From Octopus vulgaris (taxonomy: Eukaryota), in the NCBI GenBank assembly GCA_951406725.2, contig OX597816.1:57226001-57290000 (forward strand): a DNA stretch of 64,000 nt, given 5' to 3'. Positions 24,791 to 33,789 of the stretch are shown here, piece by piece. The stretch's first letter is position 1. Every line of letters starts with the position of its first letter. The position numbers and the translations under genes were made by a program. Below the pieces are notes generated by a model, which was not told where the DNA came from, did not search any database, and worked only from the letters and a program-made list of their open reading frames with translations.

Positions 24791-24940
24791 TGTATAGAAG
24801 AATATATTAATAAAAAAGAATTCCAACCTTGTCTGATTTTCACGTTTTATTTACAATCTTATAATGATATATTATAAGATAATATATTATAATTGAATAA
24901 AATAAAATGAAATAGTAGAATGTTAAATATTCATTCTGAT

Positions 24941-24985
24941 TGAACTAGTACTTTCATGCATTGAATTCTGCAATCTTCGGGTTCA
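24941..24985 (-). ncRNA. Second copy of the minimal hammerhead motif in the inverted pLTR
   Basis: Exact reverse complement of 30361-30405. Confidence 0.8.
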
Positions 24986-25479
24986 TGTAGTAGTGTTGAC
25001 AGTCATGCTTCACAATTTTTGACTGTAGCAAGATGAGTGATTCTGTGCTATAAATACAGCTGGGTAGGCTCCAGAGTGCTAGGTTTTGCAAACTGTATTC
25101 TGACCAATCAGTGTGTAGTATCACTCAATTACTTAAGCTGATTGGTTGGTTGAGCTGATTGGTTTAGGCATCACGCTTTGTTGGACAGGTCAAGAGTCCT
25201 GTATCTTGACCCTGGCCGAAGCAGCAATTGTTGGGTTATTTTTAGAAATGTTGTAAATATCCTTTGTCAGAGATTTTTATATTTTTATATTTCAATTGTC
25301 ATCATCATCATTGTCAGCACCTTAATTATTGTTGCTAGTGGTGATGGTGGTGGCAATAGAACTTTTAACCCTAAATAAGATAATTTTCCTGCTATCTTCG
25401 TCTTGATCACCTTTAGTATTGTTGTTGTTGTTAGTGGTCATGGTCGTAGCAGTGGAAGTAATACCTCTAAGTATTATTA

Positions 25480-26444
25480 TTATTGCTTATTTAGCTTGGG
25501 TTCGAATTTATCAATAAAATTCTTTTCTCTGATTTTCCTCTCGATTTCACTTGGGCTGTGTAATTTGTAGAATGGAAATATTATATATATTTTCCGACCA
25601 CATGTTGCTAGGTGGTTACTCAAAGGTATCTGACGGACCTCTGGGTCTCTAATCTGTTGCCGGTGTACACGTGAGCGTTCTAATAGTGCGTTTCCCGTCT
25701 GACCTACATATATTTCTTCACAATTTGGGCATTTGATGCAGTAAATTAAATTTCTGCTTTTGCAGTTCATATTCGCGTTTGTGAATATTTTCCCGGTTTT
25801 TGTGTTTATATATTGACCGGTATGTATGAATTGGCATGTGCCACATCGGCTATCATTGCATTTAGATGCCGTGAATGTTTGGTCTTTGTTGCTGAGGTCA
25901 AATTTTGCCTTTGTTAGTAATGTTTTCAAGTTTTTAGGCTGTCTTTTACTAAGCACCATAGCTCGATCCTTGATTATGTCTTTTAATTCATTACTTTGGG
26001 CAATGATTGGTAGGTTTGCTTTGGCAATGTTGAAGATATTCTGGTGACATGGGTTGTGTGTCACTATGAATGGTATGACTTGTTCTTGTTTTCCTCTTCC
26101 TTGGGTTGTCCTAAGTTGTTGTATAGGTATTTTTATAGCCCGCTGTATGCCATTTTCTATAAGTAGAGATGGGTATTTTTGTTTGAGCAAAATTCTCTTA
26201 GTTCTATTAGGCGTTTGTTCCTGATATTTGCATCTTCTACAATAGTACAAATTCTTCTGGCTAGGCAGTATGGGATGTTACGTTTTGTATGTGGTGGATG
26301 GCACGACTTAAAATTTAGGTATTGATGTGTGTCTGTGTGTTTATAGTATATATCTGTGGTGATGGTGGTGTCTTTTTTAATTACCATTATATCCAGGAAT
26401 GGTAATTTGGTACTACTCATCTCCTTTGTAAATTTGAGAGATGG
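25480..26444 (-). pseudogene. Inverted duplicate of the PLE ORF 3' third (RT thumb + GIY-YIG), with 1-nt frameshift
   Basis: ORFs 26157-26453 and 25480-26250 match the C-terminus of 27956-29866 except V->A (FTVSK/FTASK) and a T5->T4 deletion. Confidence 0.93.
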
Positions 26445-27632
26445 TTGACACACAATCCTCTATTTTAAAGGAAATAGAAAAACAGTCTACAGACGGAAAA
26501 CTTGGAAATGAACACATAAACTCTGAAATTAAGAATTTAGCTGAAATGATACCAACAATTATAAAATCTACAAGAGAAAGCCTACCACAACCTCCTTGGA
26601 TGTCAGAAATAAACGAAAGAAATCTGGAAAAAGAGGCACACCGAAAAAGAGAAGAGATACAGAAGACATGGAAAAAACTCCTTAACATAAGAAAACAAAA
26701 CTTCTGGAAGGCATATAAATGCGAAAAATATGCTGAAATACATTCGAAATGGATATCTTTAGCGGCACCCATACTTCCTCGGAAGTACCTAATTAAAGAA
26801 ATTGCAGGAGAACCAGAGGAAGAAACTAAACTTCGATGGGACCTTAGTTTGATAAAATTCAGGACCGACATCTCCATTACCCTGTCTAAACAATCCCGCT
26901 ACAAAGCCAAATACGAAGCTATCGATGATCAAATCAGAGATGACCGGCAATATAGCAGAAAAAATGCGAGAACTATGGATCAGAGATATCTCAAAAGAAG
27001 AAAGCAGATCAAGAAAGTTTTGGCAGCGGAAACAATTATTTCTCGACAAATATGCTACAAATTACGGTAAAGACACCAGAACTCCGAGAAATAGCATTAA
27101 AAGTGGACAACCTCACCAACGCAACATACACCAGAACACGTGGCAACATGAACACCCGTTTCACCACGAATCGAAGACGAACTACGGTAAGAACTCTTCC
27201 CATTTTGTATGCAAACACCCTAATGCACACAACATGAACAAAAAGCACAAACAAAATAGATATTGTTTTGAACAGACCATTAGCAGTAGAAATAACAGGA
27301 GATCATTTTCAAGACCTCAACAGAGATTACCCACAAGAAACTGGACAAAAAACCGATCTAGATCTAGAAGTAAACCCAGATCATTTCTCCAGGTGGTTAA
27401 AAACAATGCTAACAAGAAATTGAAAAGTAGCATACATAATACCAAAAACAAGACAGAAAACATAACGAAACCAAGTAAAGTACCACAACCAAAACGCAAA
27501 ATTCATCAAGCAAACATCAACAGGAATATAAATCATAACCAGAAAAAAATCCATTTTTTTACGTCAGGACAACAAACACCGGAGAAAGAAAAAATCCAAG
27601 AGGAAACATACCCCAAACAACTGAACGTATAG
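26445..27632 (+). CDS. PLE upstream ORF1 (helical/coiled-coil N-part, basic R/S/K/N-rich C-part), 5'-truncated, one frameshift near 26930
   Basis: Overlapping ORFs 26441-27070 and 26925-27632 read as one charged helical protein followed by a basic disordered tail (RSRSRSKPRS); lies inside the element directly before the RT frame. Confidence 0.7.
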
Positions 27633-29866
27633 ATCCTAAAATAATTAATTTATCAAAAAGAGATCTTGACAATGATGAAATCCAACTTCTGTCAAAAGGA
27701 CTGAAATTCACACCTACACCAACAGCCAACCACCAAGAATTAAAGGAGGATATCCAAAAATTCTGTCGAAAATTACGACTTGTAGAATTCTTCGCTAACA
27801 AAAGTAATGAGATTGATGAATCCCTAGTAAGGAATAAATCAAATTTCACCCCACCAAAAGGAAGAAATAACTACCTTGACCAATACATTGATATCCTGTC
27901 TAAATTTCCCCTTAGACGCAATACCAATGTTAGGCCAAACATTAGCAAATCAGAGATGTCTGCATGTAAACGTATACAAAACGATCAAACAATAATAATT
28001 AAACAAGCAGATAAAGGTGGTGCAATTGTTATTATGGATACCGAATACTATAAGGATTTGGTTGAAGACCAACTGAAGGATACAACCTTCTATTGTGAAA
28101 TACCCGCAAATATAGACCACCACATCATGAAAAAGATCAACAACCTGATTTCAACACACCACAACTCACTTACGGATAATGAAAAAGACTACATCACCAA
28201 TTTTGAACCAAAACCCAGCAACTTCTACGGCTTACCAAAAATACACAAATCAAAACACATTCAACAGGCAGTAAAAGAACAAGAAAGTGAGTACATAAAA
28301 TTATTACATCCAAAAGACCTAAAACTTAGACCTATTATAGCTGGTCCAGCATGCCCTACACACCGTCTAAGCAATTTTATTGACATTGTTTTGAAACCAC
28401 TATGTACTTACATACCAAGTTTCATCAGGGATGACATCGACTTCCTGTCCCATCTTCCCAAAACAACAGAAACAAATTCAGTTTTACTAAGTTTTGATGT
28501 GGTAAGCCTCTACACCAATATTCCACACGATTTAGGAATAAAGGCGATTAAATACTGGTTAGAAAAACATAGAGAAGTGATTCCCAGCAGATTCACAGTG
28601 CCATTTATATTAGACACAGTCAAACTTATTCTAGAAAATAACACATTCTTCTTCAATGGAAAGAATTACATCCAAATTAGAGGCACGGCGATGGGAACGA
28701 GGTTTGCTCCCGTTTACGCCAACTCTGTAATGGGATACTTAGAAGAACAACTCTACCAAGAGGTGGAGGTAAACTATGGCACTGGATTTAGAAAGTATAT
28801 TGAAAAGGCATGGAAGAGATACCTAGACGACTGTTTCATAATCTGGACAGAATCTCTAAATACTCTGGAAGAGTTCAATATCCTCCTGAACAACCTACAC
28901 CCATCTCTCAAATTTACAAAGGAGATGAGTAGTACCAAATTACCATTCCTGGATATAATGGTAATTAAAAAAGACACCACCATCACCACAGATATATACT
29001 ATAAACACACAGACACACATCAATACCTAAATTTTAAGTCGTGCCATCCACCACATACAAAACGTAACATCCCATACTGCCTAGCCAGAAGAATTTGTAC
29101 TATTGTAGAAGATGCAAATATCAGGAACAAACGCCTAATAGAACTAAGAGAATTTTTGCTCAAACAAAAATACCCATCTCTACTTATAGAAAATGGCATA
29201 CAGCGGGCTATAAAAATACCTATACAACAACTTAGGACAACCCAAGGAAGAGGAAAACAAGAACAAGTCATACCATTCATAGTGACACACAACCCATGTC
29301 ACCAGAATATCTTCAACATTGCCAAAGCAAACCTACCAATCATTGCCCAAAGTAATGAATTAAAAGACATAATCAAGGATCGAGCTATGGTGCTTAGTAA
29401 AAGACAGCCTAAAAACTTGAAAACATTACTAACAAAGGCAAAATTTGACCTCAGCAACAAAGACCAAACATTCACGGTATCTAAATGCAATGATAGCCGA
29501 TGTGGCACATGCCAATTCATACATACCGGTCAATATATAAACACAAAAACCGGGAAAATATTCACAAACGCGAATATGAACTGCAAAAGCAGAAATTTAA
29601 TTTACTGCATCAAATGCCCAAATTGTGAAGAAATATATGTAGGTCAGACGGGAAACGCACTATTAGAACGCTCACGTGTACACCGGCAACAGATTAGAGA
29701 CCCAGAGGTCCGTCAGATACCTTTGAGTAACCACCTAGCAACATGTGGTCGGAAAATATATATAATATTTCCATTCTACAAATTACACAGCCCAAGTGAA
29801 ATCGAGAGGAAAATCAGAGAAAAGAATTTTATTGATAAATTCGAACCCAAGCTAAATAAGCAATAA
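27539..29866 (+). CDS. PLE reverse transcriptase + Zn-knuckle + GIY-YIG endonuclease (frame open from 27539, first ATG at 27956)
   Basis: Motifs IINLS..LLSKGLKFTPTP, KQADKGGA, FYGLPKIHK, LRPIIAG, SFDVVSLYTNIP, GTAMGT, RYLDDCF, LPFLD, CNDSRCGTC, NLIYCIKCPNCEEIYVGQT..R..H; I read the frame codon by codon back to TAA at 27536. Confidence 0.95.
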   Translation, partial: PEKNPFFYVRTTNTGERKNPRGNIPQTTERIDPKIINLSKRDLDNDEIQLLSKGLKFTPTPTANHQELKEDIQKFCRKLRLVEFFANKSNEIDESLVRNKSNFTPPKGRNNYLDQYIDILSKFPLRRNTNVRPNISKSEMSACKRIQNDQTIIIKQADKGGAIVIMDTEYYKDLVEDQLKDTTFYCEIPANIDHHIMKKINNLISTHHNSLTDNEKDYITNFEPKPSNFYGLPKIHKSKHIQQAVKEQESEYIKLLHPKDLKLRPIIAGPACPTHRLSNFIDIVLKPLCTYIPSFIRDDIDFLSHLPKTTETNSVLLSFDVVSLYTNIPHDLGIKAIKYWLEKHREVIPSRFTVPFILDTVKLILENNTFFFNGKNYIQIRGTAMGTRFAPVYANSVMGYLEEQLYQEVEVNYGTGFRKYIEKAWKRYLDDCFIIWTESLNTLEEFNILLNNLHPSLKFTKEMSSTKLPFLDIMVIKKDTTITTDIYYKHTDTHQYLNFKSCHPPHTKRNIPYCLARRICTIVEDANIRNKRLIELREFLLKQKYPSLLIENGIQRAIKIPIQQLRTTQGRGKQEQVIPFIVTHNPCHQNIFNIAKANLPIIAQSNELKDIIKDRAMVLSKRQPKNLKTLLTKAKFDLSNKDQTFTVSKCNDSRCGTCQFIHTGQYINTKTGKIFTNANMNCKSRNLIYCIKCPNCEEIYVGQTGNALLERSRVHRQQIRDPEVRQIPLSNHLATCGRKIYIIFPFYKLHSPSEIERKIREKNFIDKFEPKLNKQ

Positions 29867-30183
29867 TAATAATACTTAGAGGTATTACTTCCACTGCTAC
29901 GACCATGACCACTAACAACAACAACAATACTAAAGGTGATCAAGACGAAGATAGCAGGAAAATTATCTTATTTAGGGTTAAAAGTTCTATTGCCACCACC
30001 ATCACCACTAGCAACAATAATTAAGGTGCTGACAATGATGATGATGACAATTGAAATATAAAAATATAAAAATCTCTGACAAAGGATATTTACAACATTT
30101 CTAAAAATAACCCAACAATTGCTGCTTCGGCCAGGGTCAAGATACAGGACTCTTGACCTGTCCAACAAAGCGTGATGCCTAAA

Positions 30184-30325
30184 CCAATCAGCTCAACCAA
30201 CCAATCAGCTTAAGTAATTGAGTGATACTACACACTGATTGGTCAGAATACAGTTTGCAAAACCTAGCACTCTGGAGCCTACCCAGCTGTATTTATAGCA
30301 CAGAATCACTCATCTTGCTACAGTC
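30184..30325 (+). promoter_or_regulatory. Putative Pol II promoter in the PLE pLTR
   Basis: CCAAT at 30184 and 30201, ATTGG at 30238, TATTTATA at 30290 and Inr-like CAGT at 30321; mirrored on the minus strand at about 25020-25160. Confidence 0.55.
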
Positions 30326-30360
30326 AAAAATTGTGAAGCATGACTGTCAACACTACTACA

Positions 30361-30405
30361 TGAACCCGAAGATTGCAGAATTCAATGCATGAAAGTACTA
30401 GTTCA
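30361..30405 (+). ncRNA. Minimal type I hammerhead ribozyme motif in the PLE pLTR
   Basis: TGAAC-CCGAAGA-tTGCA gaattcaa TGCAt-GAAA-GTAC-TA-GTTCA: stem I TGAAC/GTTCA, stem II TGCA/TGCA, palindromic stem III AGTACT. Confidence 0.8.
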
Positions 30406-30652
30406 ATCAGAATGAATATTTAACATTCTACTATTTCATTTTATTTTATTCAATTATAATATATTATCTTATAATATATCATTATAAGATTGTAAATAAA
30501 ACGTGAAAATCAGACAAGGTTGGAATTCTTTTTATTAATATACATATATATATACATGTACATACATATATGAATATATACACATATATATACACTCTCT
30601 CTCCTCTCTTTCCTCTCTCCCTCTCTCTCCCCTATCTCTTTTACACTCTCTC

Positions 30653-30886: not shown

Positions 30887-31415
30887 GGCAGTAGTGGCCA
30901 ATGGAGCTACCTCAATGAAAACACAAATAGCGTGCGGTGTTCCACAGTGTACTGTCTTGGATCACTACTTTTCATAGTTGCCCTCTCAGATATGCCCTCA
31001 GATACCCGGATAGCCACCCTTGCTAGATACGCAGACGATACGAAAGTCTCGCAGAAAATACAGAACCCCAGGATTTGGATTCAATTTACAGATGGGCTGA
31101 GGAGAATAATACGCAGTTTAATGCTGAAAAATTCCAAGCCCTGCGCTACCAGCGTCCAAAACTGAATATAAAACTAACAGGGTCCCCTGGTCCACGGGGA
31201 TTACAATCCCAGAGCCTTAATCAGTGAGAGACATGGGTATCGACATGAGTGAGGATACCTCTTTACAAGTGCACAGTACTAGGATTGCGACAAAGTACAG
31301 ACGACTAACTGGATGGATCCTGAGAACATTCAGAACCAGAGAGAAGGAAATCATGATGGTCCCCTGGAGGACATTCGTCCTAAGCCGTCTGGATTACTAC
31401 TCCCAGCTATGGTTG
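30884..31415 (+). mobile_element. Decayed CR1-group LINE RT fragment
   Basis: GVPQCTVL/GSLLFIVALSDM..YADDTKV; RDMGI..GWILRTF..SRLDYYSQLW. Confidence 0.85.
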
Positions 31416-31539
31416 GAGTTACAAAGCAATCAATTTACATGGGATGAATGCCAGGTGTGGAGAGTCATCAAGAGGTTTAATAGGATCTTTTCCTTTGCAG
31501 GCACTGTTACCTGTTAAGCGTACCTAGGCATGCTACACC

Positions 31540-33226: not shown

Positions 33227-33682
33227 CGCGTAGGCGAGAAAGATATGCCATAATATACATCTGGAAGATCCTAGAAGGACTTGTCCCAAACTTTGGCATC
33301 GAGAGTTACACAAATGCCAGAACTGGGCGCCACTGCATAGTGCCAAGGACTCCAAATTTGCCATCAAGATGTAGGACAAGATACTGTGATAGCCTGGGCT
33401 TCCGAGGTCCACAGCTCTTCAATATCCTCCCGAAGAACCTAAGAGACCTGCATGGGGTGGATGCAGATGTCTTTAAAATGAAACTGGATCTCTTCTTGTC
33501 AGGTATCCCAGATGAACCAACTTCACGGCAGGAGGTGCAGATGAGGGCAGCTGCATCGAACTCTCTCATGCACCAAATGGCAATTGCTAAAAAGCATTCG
33601 TGAAGTAAAATCATGTAGCAACACCAAATGGCGGTGCCCCAGCATGGCCACAGCTTGTGAGCTGAAACTAGATAAATAAAAA
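33227..33682 (+). mobile_element. 3' end of a CR1-group LINE with intact C-terminal frame and 3'UTR
   Basis: RRRERYAIIYIWKILEGLVPN..GPQLFNILP..FKMKLDLFL..IPDEP..SNSL; tail ggcggtgccccagcatggccacagc..gctgaaac; flanked by (CATA)n. Confidence 0.85.
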
Positions 33683-33789
33683 ATTTTAAAAATACATACA
33701 TACATACATACATACATACATACATAGTAACATTGATCATCAAAGCAGTCTATTATGGACCAATAACCGGATTACTACCCCCTACTTTG

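Follow-up and report, generated by a model that had tools for sequence, protein, structure and literature searches.

A candidate −1 ribosomal frameshift site between ORF1 and the reverse transcriptase-endonuclease frame of a Penelope-like family in Octopus vulgaris

How is an enzyme produced when its reading frame offers no start codon ahead of its conserved N-terminus? The question is raised by a Penelope-like element (PLE) in a stretch of 64,000 nucleotides of Octopus vulgaris DNA (assembly GCA_951406725.2, contig OX597816.1, positions 57,226,001 to 57,290,000 of the forward strand), referred to as the window; all positions below are those of the window. The element belongs to the PLEs in which the reverse transcriptase (RT) is fused to a GIY-YIG endonuclease (EN+ PLEs) and which are sister to telomerase RT. 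Another open reading frame (ORF), ORF1, lies upstream of the RT-endonuclease frame. The two frames are offset by −1, no usable ATG exists for the RT N-terminus, and a slippery heptamer, its phase and the offset are conserved across distant relatives. Judging from sequence comparison, the RT-endonuclease is very probably made by −1 ribosomal frameshifting at the in-phase U_UUU_UUU.

In the proposed mechanism, ORF1 and the RT-GIY-YIG frame would be encoded separately with a −1 overlap, and some ribosomes would slip back by one base at U_UUU_UUU. Slippage would yield small amounts of an ORF1-RT-endonuclease fusion (about 1,175 amino acids) beside abundant ORF1, the latter presumably being made in excess as a structural RNA-binding protein, in accordance with gag-pol logic. 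Because no RNA structure was found in the family of the window element (the window family), the working model assumes that ribosomes slip on the U run, helped by no more than a weak 3′ element.

Frame overlap and slippery heptamer

The RT-endonuclease frame comprises 775 codons on the forward strand (27539..29866) and is directly preceded by a TAA (27536-27538). ORF1, read from the same strand, ends at a TAG (27630..27632), and the two frames overlap by 94 nt (27539..27632) with the RT in −1. The N-terminal motif of PLE RTs, IINLS (27641..27655), precedes every ATG in the RT frame; the first ATG (27956..27958), the sole one in frame before 27960, is located 105 codons past the motif. Within the overlap ORF1 reads CAT TTT TTT ACG (27552-27563), in which the heptamer T_TTT_TTT (27554..27560) is in phase, and the ORF1 stop follows 23 codons past the Phe-Phe codons. 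The re-derived coordinates confirm the first-pass annotation, which had described an RT frame open from 27539 with IINLS about 100 codons before the first ATG, its −1 overlap with the end of ORF1, and a correctly phased heptamer inside this overlap.

The heptamer is the only sense-strand run of at least six T in the whole 4.27-kb unit. Two in-phase XXXYYYZ heptamers occur within ORF1, the other being A_AAA_AAC (unit position 1080), outside the overlap. In older copies and in most relatives the site reads T_TTT_TTA. The segment 3′ of the heptamer (27561..27582, ORF1 residues SGQQTPE) is conserved in the older copies and in relatives of 42-43% identity and carries GG at +7; no stable fold was found in it.

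Conservation of the junction in copies and relatives

All 40 scored full-length matches, which were chosen by identity, are identical across the junction. A pattern for the junction in which run lengths could vary matched 190 copies, and among the 100 listed, 95 carry A7/T7, three A8, one T8 and one an extra G. When 150 copies were chosen by RT sequence alone, the same 775-codon frame was counted by hand in 111, the others being mostly truncated or damaged downstream. The T7 run and the −1 offset, on whose conservation the earlier proposal depended, are thus the normal state of the family. Four older copies (82-88% identical) read T_TTT_TTA; in two of them the −1 offset is preserved up to and including IINLS, in a third an indel in an A run follows the site, and the fourth is cut off at the site. 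T_TTT_TTA was also found in a diverged subfamily in another organism's contigs.

Eight public sequencing runs under three organism labels were covered in the form of contigs, in which rare forms are dropped; none is on record as RNA, six having been guessed to be RNA and two being of unspecified kind. Contigs from the eight runs span the junction and show no indel in the T run, and the junction is therefore no assembly artefact: the agreement of these independent contigs and the older copies rules out a homopolymer error at the T run. Decay of a single copy was also rejected as the origin of the −1 offset and was accepted only for a 17-nt deletion located further upstream. No splice joint, GT-AG included, was found at the junction in these contigs, rare forms not being retained in them, and within this scope the spliced transcript supplying an ATG that the first-pass annotation had considered did not appear. 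One joint with 53 nt skipped and CA..AC ends, in a diverged contig and upstream of the junction, is not a canonical intron.

A profile built from four ORF1 proteins returned 578 clusters at 50% identity; the profile included the Phe-Leu (FL) columns, and its listed matches score mainly on the N-terminal half. Among ORF1 homologs of at least 300 amino acids, 81 of 96 have FL (77) or FF (4) in their last 45 residues, compared with a background of 14 in 7104 positions just upstream; the C-terminal tail is otherwise unalignable and Phe-poor. Codons for Q, K, E, M and W cannot end in T, and none of these residues precedes FL/FF in the 81 proteins (background 0.22; P 2e-9 with sequences treated as independent). 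The motif is absent from 15 of the 96 homologs; three of these have YF-R in its place, and some appear to be truncated or wrongly modelled.

The DNA of relatives was represented by 133 loci, of which 73 hold the RT N-terminus with upstream sequence, and six of these have an ORF1 profile match. In all six the RT is in −1, no Met precedes its N-terminal motif, and a heptamer stands in phase in the overlap (T_TTT_TTA in five, T_TTT_TTG in one), while the RT is 32-55% identical to that of the window. The chance of the heptamer codons given the residues is 7e-7, an overstated value, two of the loci being 72% identical in RT. A seventh locus picked by eye, L132, likewise has the RT in −1 with no Met ahead of the N-terminal motif and an in-phase heptamer, T_TTT_TTG. 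The remaining 66 of the 73 belong to more distant PLEs, which have a single long ORF, ATGs of their own or overlaps of other kinds. Since offset, heptamer and phase are kept in distant relatives, the sequences lend support to the earlier suggestion that an EN+ PLE may use gag-pol-like expression.

Fused ORF1-RT proteins were not found among the best 150 ORF1 matches (longest 706 amino acids), nor among the best 120 of 1902 RT homologs (longest 803, with up to 1302 allowed), nor in a dedicated search over 754-2150 amino acids, which is a weak test. The same 120 RT homologs start at scattered positions. Neither a viral scan nor a first scan of metagenomes with the ORF1 alignment returned a match. 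Many PLE contigs were encountered inside bacterial symbiont genomes and metagenome-assembled genomes, with RT and ORF1 annotated as bacterial hypothetical or GIY-YIG proteins; they are likely host contamination.

Evidence against frameshifting and alternative explanations

Several observations weigh against frameshifting at the U run. Slippery heptamers alone usually shift weakly. In the window family folding revealed no stimulatory hairpin (z +0.7 to −0.4 over 45-80 nt) and a crude scan no H-type pseudoknot, in agreement with the first-pass annotation, which had seen no strong hairpin downstream. Among relatives a clear hairpin (z below −3.5) is present in only two of seven. The RNA evidence consists only of contigs from runs guessed to be RNA, with rare forms dropped. 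In 53 of 120 predicted RT homologs the called start lies upstream of the INLS-like motif; called starts are ambiguous because gene callers write M for GTG and TTG. Furthermore, a junction indel fuses the frames in 11 of the 150 copies, four of them full length. These copies could be assembly slips, yet they show that a single-ORF form can arise.

Rfam returned no frameshift element. L080 stands out from its shuffles (0 of 100, a low count), but by way of a long-range stem absent from other copies. The third codon after the site is Gly (GG at +7) in 32 of 81 homologs. L095:1337-1395 and L103:2134-2192, which are 72% identical in RT, have in common GGCGAGGACC at +7 and, some 40 nt further on, GGTAACCTAGCT; the pair possibly forms a long stem, with weak support from minimum free energy.

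In none of the 81 homologs is the site followed by an ORF1 stop within 10 codons (the chance of 10 stop-free codons being about 0.45 per sequence), and in 25 of 81 the stop falls at codon 11. Counted from the Phe codon, the end of ORF1 is never at a distance of 2-11; the distance is exactly 12 in 25 of 81 homologs and 25 in the window family. The codon-11 spacing is spread over at least seven changes on the ORF1 tree, a quick version with many open branches. L102 and L132 have a real stop at +31, and L099 is an exception to the spacing, with a stop at +4 and a strong hairpin at +9. Codon 11 is one ribosome length from the site; therefore, while one ribosome terminates there, the next in the queue would be positioned over the slippery codons. 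This queue reading misfits the window family, with its 23-codon spacing, and L099.

The alternative that survives best, though its probability is small, takes the T run as the polypyrimidine tract of a 3′ splice site, with splicing joining an N-terminal part of ORF1 to the RT and unspliced RNA giving ORF1. The bases permit this, which adds to the points against frameshifting: in the window family those of the heptamer belong to a possible 3′ splice site, T7-ACGTCAG/G (27554..27567, the slash marking the splice point), at the sites of five of seven relatives the DNA is TTTTTTAG, a sequence that doubles as a splice acceptor, and a codon starting with G follows FL in 59 of 81 homologs. Intron retention in PLEs is described in the available text of PMC8557442 and PMC3846280. 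An acceptor adjoining the T run can lead into the RT frame only from a phase-2 donor, and all eight phase-2 GT sites score below 0 in a rough matrix, whereas the strong donors are in phase 1 or 0 and unfit for it. A good donor, ACG/GTAAGA at 27186, would join the RT in frame via the AG at 27631-27632, but this AG lacks a pyrimidine tract. An AG adjacent to the run is missing at L170, L132 and in the window family. A splice tract need be neither pure T6 nor in one fixed ORF1 phase across introns of varying length, and the lack of GT-AG joints in the contigs of the eight runs adds a weak argument, rare forms having been dropped.

Translation of the RT by termination-reinitiation is very improbable. 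Ribosomes would restart where ORF1 ends, using as near-cognate codon the ATA at 27629, which overlaps the TAG; the stop abuts IDPKIINLS, and LINE-1 (long interspersed nuclear element 1) ORF2 can start without AUG. In a third, more distant EN+ group with long upstream ORFs (L111, L113, L114 and L119, all from one assembly), an ATGA stop-start accompanies a −1 overlap in all four loci. It is a candidate for termination-reinitiation, and such a route would therefore exist among PLEs. Reinitiation leaves unexplained, however, why a conserved in-phase heptamer stands 4-70 nt before the stop and why the frame is open from the heptamer, and in none of the six relatives with an ORF1 is the N-terminal motif preceded by a Met.

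It is highly unlikely that ORF1 and RT already share one frame in the RNA that is translated, whether through polymerase slippage on A7/T7 or through rare fused genomic copies supplying RT in trans to a mutant majority: the 11 fused copies do arise by single-base insertions at A7, T7 and A6 runs, but they have no private single-nucleotide polymorphisms in common, some being closest to unfused copies, similar indels affect a few percent of copies at other A runs (loci not deduplicated), transcriptional slippage needs no codon phase while most relatives have T6 only, and the offset is common to families 32-49% identical in RT. Copies with ORF1 and RT in one frame, the case that the first-pass annotation had set against its own proposal, are not the rule. 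In an incomplete hand tally, frame-fusing junction indels (12) outnumbered non-fusing ones (4 seen); the excess could be due to insertion bias or assembly error, or to a cis advantage of fused transcripts.

The candidate site at the U run has a possible counterpart in a second EN+ group (L147-L150, L153-L155, L159, L161, L167 and L168, all from one assembly), the RT of which is about 29-30% identical to the window RT and overlaps a Q/P-rich upstream ORF in −1. An in-phase G_GGT_TT(T/C) is found 1-7 nt before the ORF1 stop in nine of these 11 loci, one of the others having G_TTT_TTT and one none. This is likely an independent −1 site, its stop being close, unlike that of the FL family. With couplings as varied as heptamers and ATGA, a two-ORF organisation looks common among linker-bearing EN+ PLEs. 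A broader claim, which we consider doubtful, is that the 578 ORF1 clusters mark a large unrecognised EN+ PLE branch in which −1 frameshifting would be stimulated by ORF1 stop spacing and not by RNA structure, that other EN+ lineages would use G_GGU_UUU or AUGA, and that two-ORF expression would be general. In the assembly of the third group, L115, L117 and L128 show a +1 overlap and an early Met of their own.

The element, its proteins and known systems

The window family is a Neptune/Nematis-type EN+ PLE by its domains, without the single-ORF feature. It has a PLE-type RT with the N-terminal motifs and YxDD, a C-terminal GIY-YIG with CCHH, and tandem and inverted copies with pseudo-long terminal repeats (pseudo-LTRs). 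With Neptune (or Nematis), as characterized in the available text of PMC8557442, it has in common the IINLS, GLKF and DKG motifs, the endonuclease type, the cysteine linker CX2-5CxxC by which both clades are defined, the tandem and inverted pseudo-LTR arrangements and insertion beside a TA microsatellite. The same source calls canonical EN+ PLEs single-ORF, and PMC6431247, in the part available, gives two PLE states, a single ORF with endonuclease or two ORFs without it; the usual single-ORF description of GIY-YIG PLEs, as given in the first-pass annotation, agrees with both. The window family differs by a conserved 430-amino-acid ORF1 that overlaps the RT in −1 at a slippery heptamer. Two ORFs are present in intact copies and in six of six relatives, and the family is therefore a variant and not a canonical EN+ PLE.

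For a killifish Neptune consensus, the available text of PMC12602865 gives two non-overlapping ORFs (420 + 2004 nt) and makes no mention of frameshifting. According to the legend of Fig. 1 in PMC8557442, ORF1 can be set apart by a frameshift that has a pseudoknot. Beyond this legend no published frameshift in EN+ PLEs was found in a search that excluded Repbase, Arkhipova 2006/2017, Gladyshev and Arkhipova 2007 and figures, and a prior description is possible. The portions of PMC3846280, PMC5408684 and PMC5009743 that were covered contain nothing on EN+ PLE frameshifting, the word 'Penelope' being absent from the first 300,000 of the 449,034 characters of PMC5009743.

The endonuclease-deficient, two-ORF Athena/Terminon elements likewise have a coiled-coil ORF upstream of a PLE RT. 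They lack a fused endonuclease and are telomeric, whereas the window family is EN+ and spread over many contigs, with no pseudoknot found; it does not belong to them. The frameshifted ORF1 of the figure legend is probably that of Athena, and the legend would then agree, indirectly, with the first-pass annotation, which had given ORF1/RT frameshifting as reported for Athena/Terminon PLEs.

Most relatives read Phe-Leu-Gly across the site, presumably as HIV-1 does. The likeness to −1 frameshifting in retroviral and LTR gag-pol extends to the class and phase of the heptamer and to the order of a structural ORF followed by the enzyme in −1 (PMC8310308 and PMC5009743, in part), and U_UUU_UUA is the HIV-1 shift site (PMC8310308). 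The window element differs in being non-LTR and non-viral; the fold of its ORF1 matches neither Gag nor any solved or viral structure, and no conserved stem-loop was shown. An in-phase X_XXY_YYZ lies in the overlap, and site, phase and offset are conserved across divergent families, as expected of a −1 frameshift cassette. The usual stem-loop or pseudoknot 5-9 nt downstream is missing from the window family, hairpins being seen in two of seven relatives, and the heptamer is therefore a candidate site.

If frameshifting operates here, EN+ PLEs would possess, much as retroviruses do, a means of setting how much structural protein is made relative to enzyme. The N-termini of many consensus sequences in databases, and of many predicted RT proteins, would be wrong, and hundreds of natural, divergent shift sites would become available for studying slippage that seemingly needs no pseudoknot. 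The youth of the family and its intact tandem copies make reporter and retrotransposition tests straightforward.

The RT-endonuclease contains GLKF, DKG, GTAMG and YLDD (28820-28831), followed by a CX4CxxC linker (CNDSRCGTC, residue 650; 29486-29512), which is also present in five of five full-length relatives, and by a GIY-YIG domain with a CCHH pattern at about 29597-29857 (CPNC, YVG and two downstream His). The RVT_1 match (E 2.4e-6) is below the curated cut-off, and the GIY-YIG match (PF01541, residues 687-773, E 2.7e-5) is above it. For ORF1, the structure predicted from an 85-sequence alignment (mean pLDDT, the predicted local distance difference test, 71.6) has long, coiled-coil-like helices in residues 11-241 and then a basic disordered tail. 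Pfam holds no family for ORF1, its PDB sequence matches are generic coiled coils only, and Foldseek gave no match to the model at E 0.001 among PDB or viral structures. No match in the ESM Atlas reaches 0.9, and except for one weak lead none carries a name. ORF1 may be a structural RNA-binding protein.

The window copy is broken because of a 5′ truncation and the 17-nt deletion. This main copy (26447..30533, forward strand) of a young EN+ family is truncated at about 26447, where the start of ORF1 is missing; the deletion, near 26942, is not found in other copies spanning the site. What is left of ORF1 (26447..27632, forward strand) is startless and split by the deletion. The 258-amino-acid 'ORF1' of the window is consequently the tail of the 430-amino-acid ORF of intact copies. 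Despite the broken window copy the family is young, and elsewhere in the 2.8-Gb genome tandem 4271-bp units have both ORFs intact, with the 430-amino-acid ORF1 and the 775-codon RT frame. Searches of the own genome with divergent queries returned only the same family, and among named homologs the nearest come from bivalve molluscs. The 3′ terminal region (29867..30533, forward strand) forms the pseudo-LTR where duplicated and lies in tandem arrays directly upstream of the next unit's ORF1. No hammerhead ribozyme was detected in the pseudo-LTR with Rfam or with one strict core pattern, degenerate forms being outside its scope.

Head-to-head with the main copy stands an inverted, 5′-truncated copy of the 3′ part of the element (24813..26447, reverse strand), comprising the RT end, the endonuclease and the 3′ terminal region. 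The inverted arms are 100% identical (24813-26192 with 29154-30533, and 26189-26447 with 28898-29156). This piece represents a typical PLE inverted arrangement and adjoins a TA-rich microsatellite. At the inversion junction (26438-26447) a new ATG has arisen, which is in frame with the truncated N-terminal part of ORF1; the frame from this ATG stops at 27070 because of the 17-nt deletion. Downstream of the main copy, at 30900-31500 and 33300-33750, the window contains decayed fragments of another RT-like sequence (RYADDTKV, SRLDYYSQLW; LGFRGPQLFNILP), which we take to resemble the C-termini of LINEs.

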